From Candidatus Thorarchaeota archaeon (GTDB lineage Archaea > Asgardarchaeota > Thorarchaeia > Thorarchaeales > Thorarchaeaceae), in NCBI GenBank assembly GCA_008080745.1, contig SHMX01000007.1:90001-122000 (forward strand): a DNA stretch of 32,000 nt, written 5' to 3'. Within the stretch, counting starts at the first letter, position 1. The number at the start of each line of letters is the position of its first letter. A program made the translations under genes and the position numbers. This document shows positions 26,104 through 32,000 of this stretch, in pieces. The notes below the pieces were generated by a model. It was not told the DNA's origin and ran no database searches. It saw only the letters and a program-made list of their open reading frames with translations.

Positions 26104-27234
26104 ATGAAGACCAGTAGCAAATCTCCTGTCGAGGAACTCTCTCTTAGCAAAGAATCACCTGCCTATATGCGAACCAGTCTTGCAGCCGCAATGACCATGA
26201 AGAAGATGTCAGGAAGATTCTATCGTGATACTGAGCTCTATTGTGTGAACTTGCTCTTGACGTATGATGATGGTTGTCATGCAAAGTGTGCTTATTGTGG
26301 CCTCTCCGGCTCTCGAGAGACTGAAACTGAATGGACCGATAATAGTTTCATTCGAGTTGATTGGCCCATCTATTCTCTCGATGAGATAAAAACCGCTCTT
26401 GTTGACGGTACGTGTCCTCATGTCGAACGTGTCTGTATCTCTATGATTACTCTAGGAAGGGCAAGAGATGACTGTATCACTGTAGTGGAAGAATTGAGGA
26501 AAGTCATTCCAAGAATCTCTATTCTAATTACTCCTACAATCATAAATCGAGAATGGCTTCAGAGGGCAAAAGATGCTGGTGCAGATATGGTGGGGATAGC
26601 CGTTGACGCTGCGACACCTGAACTATTCGATGAACTGCGAGGAAATGGTGTTCGTGGCCCTCATAAGTGGGATAAATACTGGAAGACTATTCACGAGGCT
26701 GTCGAAGTGTTTGGTGAAGAGAATGTAGGTATCCACCTAATTGTTGGTATAGGTGAAACAGAACAAGAGATTCTCAAGACCATTCAACAAGCTCAGAGTC
26801 TGGGAGCTGATACTCATCTCTTTTCATTCTTTCCTGAGGAAGGGTCTGATATGGAGTCCCTGCCTCAACCACCTCTTGGTGGTTACAGAAGGGTTCAGCT
26901 TGGCCGATACATCATAAATTACGGTCATGGATCCTTTTCAGAGATGACGTTCAATGAACAGGGTCAACTGACCGATTTTGGTGTTGAGAGTTCTCTATAT
27001 GATCGGCTGGTTGATGCTGGTGATGCGTTCATGACCTCTGGATGTAGGGGTGAAACAATGGAGAATGCCTGTAATCGTCCCTTTGGAAATTGTACTCCCT
27101 ATCAAGCCTCAATTGGACATTGGAGAAATTTTCCCATCCAACCCAATGAAGACGATATCAAAAAGATTCGTGAACAATTAAATGACTACTCTCTTACCTA
27201 TGAGGTGGATGACTTCTACATTGAAGACGATTGA
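26104..27234 (+). CDS. lipS1: Radical SAM protein, LipS1-type lipoyl synthase subunit
   Basis: CHAKCAYC, HLIVGIGE, HLFSFFPEEG and C-terminal TSGC...CNRP, matching the LipS1 TxGCPxC(N/D)RP motif with a longer spacer. Context is next to LipS2 and ligases. Likely start ATG 26104; ORF-track start 26056. Confidence 0.78.
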   Translation: MKTSSKSPVEELSLSKESPAYMRTSLAAAMTMKKMSGRFYRDTELYCVNLLLTYDDGCHAKCAYCGLSGSRETETEWTDNSFIRVDWPIYSLDEIKTALVDGTCPHVERVCISMITLGRARDDCITVVEELRKVIPRISILITPTIINREWLQRAKDAGADMVGIAVDAATPELFDELRGNGVRGPHKWDKYWKTIHEAVEVFGEENVGIHLIVGIGETEQEILKTIQQAQSLGADTHLFSFFPEEGSDMESLPQPPLGGYRRVQLGRYIINYGHGSFSEMTFNEQGQLTDFGVESSLYDRLVDAGDAFMTSGCRGETMENACNRPFGNCTPYQASIGHWRNFPIQPNEDDIKKIREQLNDYSLTYEVDDFYIEDD

Positions 27235-28222
27235 TGATATCATCTCACGATGTTTCTCAGCACCTCTTGGTGAACTCGAATCCCTCTCTGAGGTAGCCTT
27301 TGATGCATCACGAAGACAGTTCAATAACAAGATATTCTTCTATGCTCCAGGCATGGTGCACTATGAGACCGAGTTCCATCGTGCAGCGGACAAGTACCGC
27401 TTTCCTAGTATATCCATTACTGGTGAGGGCTGTGCATTGAACTGTGAGCATTGTAATGGTCAACTCCTCACCACTATGCATGCAGCCACCACTCCTGACG
27501 CCCTCTGGAACTTTGCTCTGGAGATTCACAGACATGAAGGTACGGGGTGTCTTATCAGCGGAGGCTCTACACCTAGTGGTAACACACCACTCATCCCCTT
27601 TATTCCTATAATTAAAAGAATGAAGGAAGAACTTGACCTGGATATTGTTGTGCATACTGGTCTGGTTCTTCCTGAGATTGCTGAGGCTCTTGGTACTTGT
27701 GGAATTGATGGTGCCATGCTGGATATCATCGGTTCCAACAGCACACTTCGTGAGATCTATCATTTGAATCTATCAATAGAAGTCTTTGATATGTCCATGC
27801 AGCATCTTCAAGACTACAATATTCCATTCATTCCACATATCATCGCAGGTCTTCATCATGGTCGTCTGCTGGGTGAAGACCGAGCAATCAAGATGATAGC
27901 TAAATATAATCCACATTCAGTTGTGGTGGTTGCGTTCATGCCTTTGGAGAACACCCCCATGTCGGATGTGACTCCAGCAAGTCCGAGTGATATCATGCGG
28001 GTTATTCTTGCCACCCGTTTTGCTATTCCCGATAGACCATTGGTGTTGGGATGTGCTCGCCCGTTAGGTGAGCACCGCAGAGAACTTGACCAACTTGCCA
28101 TTGACGTTGGAGTAAATGGTATCGCATATCCCACTGAGGAGGGGTACCAATATGCAAATGATAGAGGATTATCTATTCAGTATACTGACCAATGTTGTTC
28201 ACTTATTTATCGAGAATTCTAA
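27182..28222 (+). CDS. lipS2: Radical SAM protein, LipS2-type lipoyl synthase subunit
   Basis: SITGEGCALNCEHC, CLISGG, GCARP and terminal CCS, matching the LipS2 GC(M/A)R and CC motifs. The start is uncertain (27182-27221) and overlaps the lipS1 end. Confidence 0.8.
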   Translation: MTTLLPMRWMTSTLKTIDDIISRCFSAPLGELESLSEVAFDASRRQFNNKIFFYAPGMVHYETEFHRAADKYRFPSISITGEGCALNCEHCNGQLLTTMHAATTPDALWNFALEIHRHEGTGCLISGGSTPSGNTPLIPFIPIIKRMKEELDLDIVVHTGLVLPEIAEALGTCGIDGAMLDIIGSNSTLREIYHLNLSIEVFDMSMQHLQDYNIPFIPHIIAGLHHGRLLGEDRAIKMIAKYNPHSVVVVAFMPLENTPMSDVTPASPSDIMRVILATRFAIPDRPLVLGCARPLGEHRRELDQLAIDVGVNGIAYPTEEGYQYANDRGLSIQYTDQCCSLIYREF

Positions 28223-28234
28223 GGAGTGAAGGCT

Positions 28235-29834: not shown

Positions 29835-30890
29835 GTGAACCATTTTGATGTCGTTGTGGTGGGTGGAGGTCCTGGGGGTTCTTCAAGCTCTATACTCTGT
29901 GCAGATGAGGATTTAAACGTCTTACTTCTTGAGAAAGGTGAACGAGACCGACACAAGGCATGTGGTGGCGTGCTTCCAGCAGTTGCACCCGACACCATTG
30001 AAGACATTCTTGATGTTGAAATTCCAGAATCAGTGATGCAGAATCCCACTCGTCTGGGTCTCTATTATGTTCCGCCTAGCGGTAGGAAAAACAGGGCTGT
30101 CTTAGATGGCTATCACATCCACAATATCGACCGAGACCGATTTGACCAGTGGCTTCAAGATACTGCTAAGAAACGAGGGGTTGATGTACAGTATCATTCC
30201 AAGCTAGTTGATTTTGAGCATGACCAGCAATTTCGAATTCAAATAGATACTCCCTCGGGGAAACAGATAGTCACCTCTGATTATCTTATTGGGGCGGACG
30301 GTGCTAGATCGACCACTCGTCAGATTTTGTTTCCTGAGGTCGAAGTTCCTAGGATGTTGGTGGGTCAGGAGGAATGGAGAGCTGGGGGTGACTTTGGTGA
30401 TTACTTCTATGGTTTCTTTAGGCACGACATATCGAAAGCCTATGCCTATATCATTCCCAAAGCCAATCGTTTACTTATTGGTCTTGGAGCAGTACCTCAT
30501 ACAGAACCAAACGTCAATGAACTGCTTAGCCGTTTCAAGCAATGGCTAACTGAAGAGTTTGGATTCAGAGGACTCGAATTGTTCAATCGAGAGGTATGGG
30601 CTATCCCCTTCGGATATTTCTATCCTGGCGTTGGAAATGCTCTATTGGTTGGAGATGCTGCTGGCCTCTGTAATCCATTGTCTGGTGAAGGAATACGGCC
30701 CGCAATTGAGAGTGCAGAGGCAGCTGTGTTTGCATTGGTTACTGACGATGAGACTTCGCTGGTTGAACGATACTCACGAAATGTAGCAGGTCTTCTAGCA
30801 ATGATTAGAGAACTGAATGAGTTCGTTAGGGGACTCGATGATGATAAAATGGAGGAGTTTGTCAGACAAGAGGCAGAGAGAAGCCTCTAG
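29835..30890 (+). CDS. Geranylgeranyl-reductase-family FAD oxidoreductase (LipT-like by context)
   Basis: GGGPGG, KACGG, DRDRFDQWL, GADG and GDAAGLCNPLSGEGI. GAGGTG lies 7 nt before GTG 29835; ORF-track start 29820. Confidence 0.82.
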   Translation: MNHFDVVVVGGGPGGSSSSILCADEDLNVLLLEKGERDRHKACGGVLPAVAPDTIEDILDVEIPESVMQNPTRLGLYYVPPSGRKNRAVLDGYHIHNIDRDRFDQWLQDTAKKRGVDVQYHSKLVDFEHDQQFRIQIDTPSGKQIVTSDYLIGADGARSTTRQILFPEVEVPRMLVGQEEWRAGGDFGDYFYGFFRHDISKAYAYIIPKANRLLIGLGAVPHTEPNVNELLSRFKQWLTEEFGFRGLELFNREVWAIPFGYFYPGVGNALLVGDAAGLCNPLSGEGIRPAIESAEAAVFALVTDDETSLVERYSRNVAGLLAMIRELNEFVRGLDDDKMEEFVRQEAERSL

Positions 30891-30927
30891 GACCATAGTT
30901 AAGTACAACTTCAGCTAATCATCTACT

Positions 30928-32000
30928 ATGCCCCTTGAGACTTGGAGACTTCTTGATTTGGGTCCTATCGACCCGTTGGACACTCAGATTATCTATGATA
31001 TGATCGCTCACGCTATCACTGATGGTAAGGCAGAGAATACCTTAGTTATATGCTGGCCTGCTGAACCGATTGTTAGCCTTGGATATTTCCAAGAGGTTGA
31101 CAAGGATATCGATCTTGAGTTTTGTCGGGAAAACGACATCATGATAACTCGTCGTGTCATAGGTGGCGGTGGTGTCTATCTTGATGATGGACAAATGTTC
31201 TATCAACTCATCAGTAGAATAGATAGCCCAGTTGTTCCTAAAGATATCAATGCTTACTATCGAAAATTCTTACAGGCCCCTGTCGAGACCTACCGTGATA
31301 TGGGAATTGAAGCAGACTTCAAACCGGTCAATGATATACAGGCTGATGGGAAGAAGATCTCTGGAAATGGTGCCGGTGATGTTGAGGATGCACGAATTCT
31401 CACGGGTAATCTGATATTCACTTTCAATTATGATATGATGACAAAGGTACTCAAAGTACCCAGTGAGAAATTTCGGGATAAGATAGCTCAGAGTCTCCGA
31501 GAGCGAATGGGTACAATTGAGGGGCTGGTTGGCTCTTTACCTGATCGTGAAGAGACCAAAAAGAATCTTATCCGTCACTTTCAGGAGACCCTCGATATCC
31601 AGCTGGTCTCAGGCGAGCTATCAGACTATGAACGCAAGAAGATGGGTGAGATGCGCCCCAGGTATCTCTCTGACGAGTGGCTATTCTGGCGAAGTGGAAG
31701 AAAGTTCAAGGACGCTCGAACCGTACGTATCTCCGCAACCACCTTTGTTGGCACTGCTGATTACAAAGCTCCTGGTGGGCTTATCCGTGTGACCGTAGAG
31801 GATGTTGAGGACAAAATCAAGGATATCGTTCTCTCTGGCGATTTCTTTATGCTTCCACATGACGCCTTGGGAAAGATCGAATCGCTACTGGTTGGTGTGA
31901 AAACATCTGAGAGTGATCTGAGAGAACGTATCGAACGGATATATGCTGAGATTGGTATAGATTCTCCGGGAGTCACTCCTGAAGACATTGCCAAGACAAT
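30928..32000 (+). CDS. Second lipoate:protein ligase, sLpl(AB)-like, truncated by the right edge
   Basis: Manual translation is open for 357 codons from ATG 30928: MPLETWRLLDLG...LGYFQEVDKDIDLEFC...RRVIGGGGVYLDDGQMFYQ...PVNDIQADGKKISGNGA...LKVPSEKFRDK...KAPGGLIRV...LSGDFF...PGVTPEDI. Absent from the ORF track because there is no stop. Confidence 0.88.
   Translation, partial: MPLETWRLLDLGPIDPLDTQIIYDMIAHAITDGKAENTLVICWPAEPIVSLGYFQEVDKDIDLEFCRENDIMITRRVIGGGGVYLDDGQMFYQLISRIDSPVVPKDINAYYRKFLQAPVETYRDMGIEADFKPVNDIQADGKKISGNGAGDVEDARILTGNLIFTFNYDMMTKVLKVPSEKFRDKIAQSLRERMGTIEGLVGSLPDREETKKNLIRHFQETLDIQLVSGELSDYERKKMGEMRPRYLSDEWLFWRSGRKFKDARTVRISATTFVGTADYKAPGGLIRVTVEDVEDKIKDIVLSGDFFMLPHDALGKIESLLVGVKTSESDLRERIERIYAEIGIDSPGVTPEDIAKT

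Follow-up and report, generated by a model that had tools for sequence, protein, structure and literature searches.

At the end of a 32,000-nucleotide (nt) stretch of DNA from a Candidatus Thorarchaeota archaeon (contig SHMX01000007.1, positions 90,001 to 122,000; hereafter the window) lies an operon of five plus-strand genes, found between positions 26104 and 32025. They encode two radical S-adenosylmethionine (SAM) proteins resembling LipS2 and LipS1, an Lpl(AB)-type ligase fused to an eight-cysteine domain, a LipT-like FAD flavoprotein and a second ligase, here LigB (Table 1). The source assembly of this Asgard archaeon comprises 3.16 Mb in 19 contigs and is 98% complete. An initial annotation of the window had described five tightly spaced genes from a probable Asgard archaeon, and both points hold. 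In the open reading frame listing and the Pfam and NCBIfam scans every neighboring pair overlaps or lies at most 37 nt apart (genes 1 and 2 overlap by up to 53 nt, genes 2 and 3 are separated by 12 nt, genes 3 and 4 overlap by 14 nt, and genes 4 and 5 are separated by 37 nt), and the nearest homologues are thorarchaeotal, those of the fused ligase and of LigB being 63-80% identical proteins from Candidatus Thorarchaeota. The radical SAM motifs quoted in that annotation (TSGC..CNRP; GCARP with a CC pair near the end) are likewise all present in genes 1 and 2. Judging from the genes present and the families they belong to, the retained ligand residues, the shared gene order, the absence of LipA and the presence of acceptors, we consider it highly probable that the operon builds the lipoyl cofactor de novo by the ligase-LipS1/LipS2 route.

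Table 1. Features of the lipoate assembly operon, in window coordinates (aa, amino acids)
Feature	Position	Strand	Remarks
AT-rich spacer, 82 nt	26022..26103	+	Between GDSL hydrolase stop (26021) and first ATG (26104); putative promoter region
lipS2-like radical SAM gene (type II LipS2), 376 aa	26104..27234	+	NF053743 LipS2 match
lipS1-like radical SAM gene, 346 aa	27182..28222	+	NF053742 LipS1 match; alternative ATGs 27200, 27209
Lpl(AB) lipoate/octanoate:protein ligase part of fused gene	28235..29347	+	PF21948, PF10437, TIGR00545
C-terminal eight-cysteine DUF116-like domain, same gene as first ligase	29348..29833	+	PF01976
LipT-like FAD flavoprotein (short geranylgeranyl-reductase-family paralogue), 356 aa	29820..30890	+	FAD_binding_3, TIGR02032
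Second Lpl(AB) ligase (LigB), 365 aa	30928..32025 (25 nt past window end)	+	PF21948, PF10437

The two radical SAM proteins were assigned to families at the level of hidden Markov models (HMMs). In the NCBIfam scan gene 1 matches the LipS2 model NF053743 over model positions 1-285 of 292 (6.4e-61, 206 bits), with variant_rSAM (8e-15), PylB (4.5e-7) and BioB (3.5e-6) as its other families, while gene 2 matches the LipS1 model NF053742 over positions 4-268 of 268 (4.4e-62, 210 bits) and BioB at only 2.6e-10. The LipS matches of both proteins are about 50 orders of magnitude ahead of BioB, PylB and MoaA, so that the proposed grouping with LipS1/LipS2 and not with BioB, HydE or PylB is sustained at HMM level (approximately 1e-61 for LipS vs. 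1e-6 to 1e-10 for BioB and PylB). A biotin synthase identity was rejected on these scores and on a genome-wide check, in which no BioB-grade gene was found save for weak matches on these same radical SAM genes. A sequence search of the PDB returned no match for LipS2 and matches at chance level only for LipS1.

The residues expected to hold the iron-sulfur (Fe-S) clusters are conserved in both proteins. The radical SAM CX3CX2C motif of gene 1 reads CHAKCAYC (C58/C62/C65) and is present in 54-55 of 55 syntenic homologues, all 55 of which also keep C111, C314, and C323. The latter two align with the CX2C pair of LipS2 proteins that score above the curated cut-off, a six-residue insert turning the spacing into CX8C, which is kept in 46 of the 55 cluster-linked proteins. 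The auxiliary [4Fe-4S] cluster cysteines of LipS2 from Thermococcus are C85, C276, and C279 (PMC9585515). In gene 2 the radical SAM motif is CALNCEHC, and its cysteines (C84/C88/C91) are invariant together with H219 and C291 in 57 of 57 homologues, with C338 and C339 following in 55 of 57. C291, C338/C339, and H219 are offset by 3-5 residues from C230, C276/C277, and H159 of the Thermococcus kodakarensis enzyme, which mutagenesis has identified as auxiliary-cluster ligands (PMC9585515).

LipA, whose absence the initial annotation had named as a point to check, was found neither in this genome nor in 27 sister genomes. The same 28 Thorarchaeota genomes contain two kinds of LipS2 set, which we term type I and type II. 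NCBIfam places its curated equivalog cut-offs at 270 bits for NF053743 and 230 bits for NF053742. Type I LipS2 proteins score 308-352 bits on the former, above the cut-off, carry the CX2C pair and are encoded beside a short lplA (~255 aa) and a separate lplB (~100 aa), with no flavoprotein and no cysteine domain; this lipS2-lplA-lplB arrangement has been called typical for Archaea (Tanabe et al., PMC10332631). Type II proteins score 200-223 bits and are almost always found in the order lipS2-lipS1-ligase(DUF116)-lipT. The operon LipS2 belongs to type II and is 29-31% identical to type I over residues 8-321 of 327 (E 3e-43 at 31%). Most sister genomes with a type II cluster also carry a type I set, but no type I lipS2-lplA-lplB set was found in this genome, and another genome of the same genus (G152) has type I only, with neither the fused ligase nor LigB. 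Given this complementary presence within one genus, either set may suffice, and the pattern suggests that type I and type II are interchangeable and that type II carries the load in this genome. A second LipS1-like gene lies alone on contig 2 (188882-189688, minus strand; locus L203:9859-10875), 40% identical to the operon LipS1 and with no LipS2 or ligase gene within 9 kb. It is present in nearly every genome of the family and probably belonged with the type I LipS2 that this genome has lost.

Candidate acceptors are also encoded, although not in the window, as had been stated initially, nor in the 12.8 kb between it and the downstream contig end, which hold no carrier gene either. Contig 2 encodes a bona fide GcvH beside GcvT, contig 1 a further GcvH-like protein that scores below the threshold, and contig 3 an E1-alpha/E1-beta/E2 2-oxoacid dehydrogenase operon; a third ligase, with the catalytic domain only, is encoded 1.9 kb downstream of the latter. 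The GcvH-like gene is close to genes on the opposite strand for a CCG-domain/ferredoxin protein and a FAD_binding_4 protein resembling glycolate or lactate oxidase (L012:4262-8400), and a HepT/nucleotidyltransferase toxin-antitoxin pair separates the E1/E2 operon from the third ligase (L010:8848-9837, contig 3). LbpA proteins carry two conserved cysteines (bioRxiv 10.64898/2026.10.01.755906). The LbpA/sHdr system was rejected as a client because these cysteines are missing from both GcvH-type proteins.

From these observations we infer the enzymatic steps, the roles of LipT and of the cysteine domain and the division of labor between the ligases. An Lpl(AB) ligase would use ATP to activate free octanoate (or lipoate) and transfer it to the lipoyl-lysine of GcvH, the GcvH-like protein or E2. 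LipS2 would then add sulfur at C8, followed by LipS1 at C6, both by radical SAM chemistry that consumes sacrificial auxiliary [4Fe-4S] clusters. The LipT-like flavoprotein probably passes on reducing electrons from NAD(P)H, and the cysteine domain could act as a local electron relay for LipS1/LipS2 or, less likely, as a re-supplier of clusters or sulfur. It is also conceivable, if unlikely, that the type II set is a specialized second lipoylation line for one carrier, such as the GcvH-like protein, and that general lipoylation proceeds via salvage by the second and third ligases. The coexistence of both types in sister genomes usually means different clients, genes whose best match is the sub-threshold GcvH of this genome stand beside the cluster in 6 of 83 loci among the matches listed, and ligases of sulfur oxidizers are known to discriminate between carriers (bioRxiv 10.64898/2026.10.01.755906). 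However, type II is the only recognizable route for sulfur insertion in this genome, since neither a type I LipS2 nor LipA is present, and neither the operon here nor any of 20 Asgard loci has a linked carrier gene. Furthermore, the GcvH-like protein has no cysteines, in contrast to the conserved pair of LbpA proteins.

The operon encodes two ligases. Both consist of an LplA catalytic domain (PF21948, LplA-B_cat) followed by an LplB-type accessory domain (PF10437, Lip_prot_lig_C). The first matches PF21948 at 1e-46, PF10437, and TIGR00545 at 3.5e-45; on the last model the two ligases score 154 and 150 bits, leaving the curated cut-off of 280 unmet. The catalytic lysine motif G(R/K)KISG occurs in all three ligase-like proteins of the genome, as GRKISG in the fused ligase. 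LigB is only ~30% identical to the fused ligase and is therefore no recent duplicate. It adjoins the other four genes only in the nearest relatives, and throughout the family its orthologues (63-71% identity) are found beside the GHMP kinase gene that here follows the operon, so the LigB-kinase pair looks older and the four-gene module appears to have joined it later. The module is directly upstream of LigB-kinase in five genomes including this one (G000, G128, G140, G151, G081). In another Thorarchaeota genome (G131) the kinase gene comes straight after the module, with no LigB between them. Many genomes have LigB and type I with no fused ligase, and others the fused ligase with no LigB. As the older resident of the site, LigB probably serves lipoate salvage or another acceptor, and it is reasonable to suppose that the two ligases are divided between de novo octanoate ligation and salvage, or by client. 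The module itself is shared by dozens of loci from bacteria and archaea. Of 20 Asgard loci, which represent at least seven families, 19 have lipS1 and/or lipS2 adjoining the fused ligase.

The flavoprotein belongs to the FAD_binding_3/geranylgeranyl reductase (GGR) family. A GGR-like FAD protein is syntenic with the cluster in 12 of the 20 Asgard loci, in each case directly after the fused ligase, and in 40 of 83 other loci among the matches listed. In a quick maximum-likelihood tree the operon protein falls, with 100% support in the Shimodaira-Hasegawa-like approximate likelihood ratio test (SH-aLRT), into a clade of cluster-encoded proteins from Asgard archaea, a Bathyarchaeota and one Desulfosarcina.

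Gene 3 had been described simply as a ligase, which is correct for its Lpl(AB) part but overlooks that the 532-aa product ends in an eight-cysteine domain. This domain occupies the last 160 residues, after residue ~375, and has the pattern PYC-x5-C-x7-C-x2-C-x2-C ... CC ... C. Seven of these cysteines never vary among 93 homologues and the eighth is kept in at least 90% of them, and the set includes a CX2CX2C motif. The Pfam family DUF116 (PF01976) matches at 25.6 bits, against a cut-off of 25, and over model positions 42-142 only. Stand-alone DUF116 proteins of several Asgard families (loci L014-L043; open frames of 180-263 aa) reach 95-166 bits, and thus the ligase-fused form constitutes a divergent subfamily. 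An exhaustive phmmer search with the domain gave 185 representative clusters in all, the best 150 of which are mostly proteins of ligase length (~500-560 aa) with the domain at the C-terminus, and a word-based search gave 340 clusters at 90% identity, from Thorarchaeota, Nitrososphaerales, and Anaerolineae or Thermoflexales. A degenerate DNA pattern for the cysteine motif matched at least 119 species genomes, a non-random sample, of which 117 truly contain the domain. Among the matches listed, a ligase gene is directly upstream on the same strand in 110 of these 117 loci and shares the reading frame in 103. The ligase is at least 35% identical to that of the window in 83 loci, 58 of which show LipS1 or LipS2 within the off-centre locus of at most 8 kb, as opposed to 27 mostly proteobacterial loci with ligases of 23-31% identity, only one of which has a LipS gene; the next recognizable gene is LipT-like in 28 of the 59 loci with at least 1.5 kb of flank (all again among the matches listed).

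An AlphaFold (AF2) model of the domain, with a predicted local distance difference test score (pLDDT) of 95, has a Rossmann/flavodoxin-like alpha/beta core, and the cysteine-rich stretch forms a loop. Foldseek and VIA-align retrieved no specific solved fold relative, only generic Rossmann/flavodoxin-like matches (best Z 7.7, to designed proteins), and a search of the ESM Atlas returned DUF116 clusters only (0.84-0.87). The domain most likely binds a metal or an Fe-S cluster, judging by its cysteines, and its LipT-like neighbors and fusions favor a redox role beside the flavoprotein.

Several variant architectures were observed. One protein of 825 aa (P0142) joins ligase, cysteine domain and LipT-like GGR flavoprotein; it could be a genuine fusion, or the overlapping genes could have been merged by a frameshift or an assembly error. 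In Aquificaceae and others the domain is followed within the same protein by a CO-dehydrogenase beta/ACS epsilon module (PF02552, CdhB-like) that replaces the separate LipT (L137:365-2581 from an Aquifex sp. metagenome-assembled genome; proteins P0246, P0254, and P0249). As adjacent genes fuse easily, we treat domain fusions as weak evidence. In a 355-aa protein (P0084) the cysteine domain stands behind a fragment of a SNO-type glutamine amidotransferase; the lipX gene that follows slpl(AB) in Hyphomicrobium has been annotated as a putative glutamine amidotransferase (PMC10332631). Finally, Acidithiobacillus ferrianus (L078:1515-5657) and three further loci (L112, L165, L171) have a distant ligase-DUF116 fusion, its ligase part 23-31% identical, directly after two U32-peptidase-family genes and with no LipS genes nearby. 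L078 and L171 carry an SCP2 gene within the operon, L112 and L165 one close by, and this U32/U32/SCP2 set resembles UbiU/UbiV/UbiT of oxygen-independent ubiquinone synthesis.

We tentatively propose, with somewhat less than even confidence, that the domain is a dedicated Fe-S module, either coupling LipT to LipS1/LipS2 as an electron relay or rebuilding their sacrificial clusters, and that together with the CX8C LipS2 it marks a distinct, self-sufficient type II line that is now widespread among anaerobes, including Asgard, Bathyarchaeota, Thermoplasmatota, Chloroflexota, Desulfobacterota, and Firmicutes, and is able to replace the canonical archaeal set, as it would have done here. The flavoprotein might instead be an ordinary GGR for membrane lipids or quinones and the cysteine domain a structural zinc module with no redox or sulfur role, but this we regard as rather improbable. 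The best family of the flavoprotein is indeed the geranylgeranyl reductase superfamily (156 bits on TIGR02032, cut-off 158.8), lipS1/S2 occur in only 22% of lipT-containing archaeal genomes (Tanabe et al., PMC10332631), and the generic Rossmann-like fold of the domain has no Fe-S relative in the PDB. However, the same genome holds six other GGR paralogues with higher scores (191-234 bits) and longer open frames (403-452 aa), beside which the operon copy is short and divergent. Its gene overlaps the ligase stop by 14 nt and keeps its place in the cluster in Asgard, Bathyarchaeota, Thermoplasmatota, and many bacteria. Moreover, seven invariant cysteines and one near-invariant one, with CX2CX2C, are a pattern seen more often at Fe-S sites than at a single zinc site.

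Several observations weigh against the reading of the operon as a de novo lipoyl assembly line. Both radical SAM proteins stay under their NCBIfam cut-offs (206 < 270 and 210 < 230 bits), which is explained by the divergence of the type II set to which the operon belongs; across the 28 family genomes only 1 of 41 LipS1-like genes, clustered or solitary, exceeds 230 bits. The solitary LipS1-like gene, at 211 bits, scores like the operon copy, and HMM scores alone therefore do not reveal function. The auxiliary motif of LipS2 is CX8C and not the CX2C of the characterized Thermococcus enzyme, and no assayed type II enzyme was found in the literature searched. The initial naming of the FAD protein as LipT stands as far as a GGR-like FAD protein does sit inside the lipS1/lipS2/ligase cluster; however, the cluster-encoded flavoproteins do not form one clade against the genome's own GGR paralogues but split into at least two, with two of those paralogues among them on long branches. 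Lastly, characterized bacterial clusters work without the cysteine domain, as judged from published gene lengths, and it is thus accessory and inessential to the chemistry. It is nevertheless very improbable that the radical SAM proteins act on a different substrate (a biotin-like or unknown acyl group that the ligases then attach), for although their sub-cut-off scores, the six-residue insert in the cluster-binding loop of LipS2 and Pfam, which sees only Radical_SAM in gene 1 and Radical_SAM with a weak BATS match in gene 2, would allow it, the full-length LipS matches far above other families, the conserved ligand residues, the constant linkage to lipoate-type ligases and the 31% identity to bona fide type I LipS2 all argue otherwise.

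The genes flanking the operon are unrelated to it. Upstream are a GDSL hydrolase and an ABC transporter, and for the lipS2-like gene a TTG start at 26056 is also open ahead of the first ATG from which its 376 aa are counted. The GDSL hydrolase was considered as a supplier of octanoate and dropped because it is syntenic in none of the 20 Asgard loci. The second ligase gene is followed by an oligo-T stretch and an AT-rich spacer. Downstream lie the GHMP kinase, a DNA methylase, a formiminotransferase-cyclodeaminase, FolD, and a formate-tetrahydrofolate ligase, the last three forming a minus-strand folate one-carbon group just past the window with a plus-strand NUDIX gene in between (L003:4382-9438). 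This group fits a glycine-cleavage-linked metabolism.

The pathway, its enzymes and its wide distribution have been published (PMC10332631, PMC9585515, PMC13692748), including the LipS1/LipS2 pathway in Asgard archaea, where LipS1/S2 are commoner than LipA (PMC10332631; Tanabe 2023). As an instance of the pathway the operon is ordinary, and its value lies in the helper candidate and not in the pathway itself. Three points are new relative to the literature searched: the ligase carries a cysteine domain, this domain is closely associated with a CX8C form of LipS2, and within one archaeal family type I and type II sets both coexist and replace each other; the search found no paper joining DUF116 and lipoate and none on a ligase cysteine domain. 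The operon offers a defined set of proteins for studying where LipS1/LipS2 obtain their electrons and how their sacrificial clusters are renewed. LipT is a candidate electron donor for LipS1/LipS2 (PMC10332631), and electron supply and cluster renewal are decisive for LipA (PMC13692748). By pairing its own flavoprotein with a conserved eight-cysteine domain on the ligase, the operon provides a testable candidate for the missing helper of LipS1/LipS2 and links the orphan family DUF116 to a pathway. As regards Asgard biology, this Thorarchaeota genome appears to depend on the divergent type II set alone. As its radical SAM proteins fall under the curated naming cut-offs, automated reconstructions would probably call the organism unable to make lipoate.

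The operon is most readily compared with the sLpl(AB)-LipS1-LipT-LipS2 clusters of sulfur oxidizers such as Thioalkalivibrio sp. K90mix and Hyphomicrobium denitrificans (PMC10332631), with which it shares the same four functions in one operon, namely an Lpl(AB)-type ligase, two BioB-like radical SAM proteins and a GGR-like FAD protein. In both cases the predicted route starts from free octanoate and is independent of LipA. However, the ligases of the sulfur oxidizers lack the eight-cysteine domain, to judge by their published gene length (~360 aa), and serve LbpA of the sHdr system, which the cysteine-free carriers here do not resemble. The appended second ligase is a further feature of the operon described here. 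Thermococcus kodakarensis has a two-enzyme synthase that works at C8 and then C6 (LipS1, TK2109; LipS2, TK2248; LplA/LplB, TK1908/TK1234; PMC9585515, PMC13692748). The cluster ligands are conserved between the two systems (a Cys, the CC pair and a His in LipS1; three Cys in LipS2), but the Thermococcus LipS2 has CX2C in place of CX8C, the ligase is encoded by two genes at separate sites, and there is neither LipT nor a cysteine domain. The type I lipS2-lplA-lplB set of the same Thorarchaeota family follows the same pathway logic, at 29-31% LipS2 identity.

Comparison with LipA, which is served by NfuA/IscU for repair and by ferredoxin or flavodoxin for electrons (PMC13692748), is also informative. 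LipA is a single enzyme with CX4CX5C and RSSY motifs that are absent here, and its helpers are general components of the cell and not operon-encoded. Nonetheless, the chemistry of sacrificial auxiliary clusters is shared, and it depends both on a source of electrons and on a means of restoring the clusters, two roles that LipT and the cysteine domain of the operon described here might fill.

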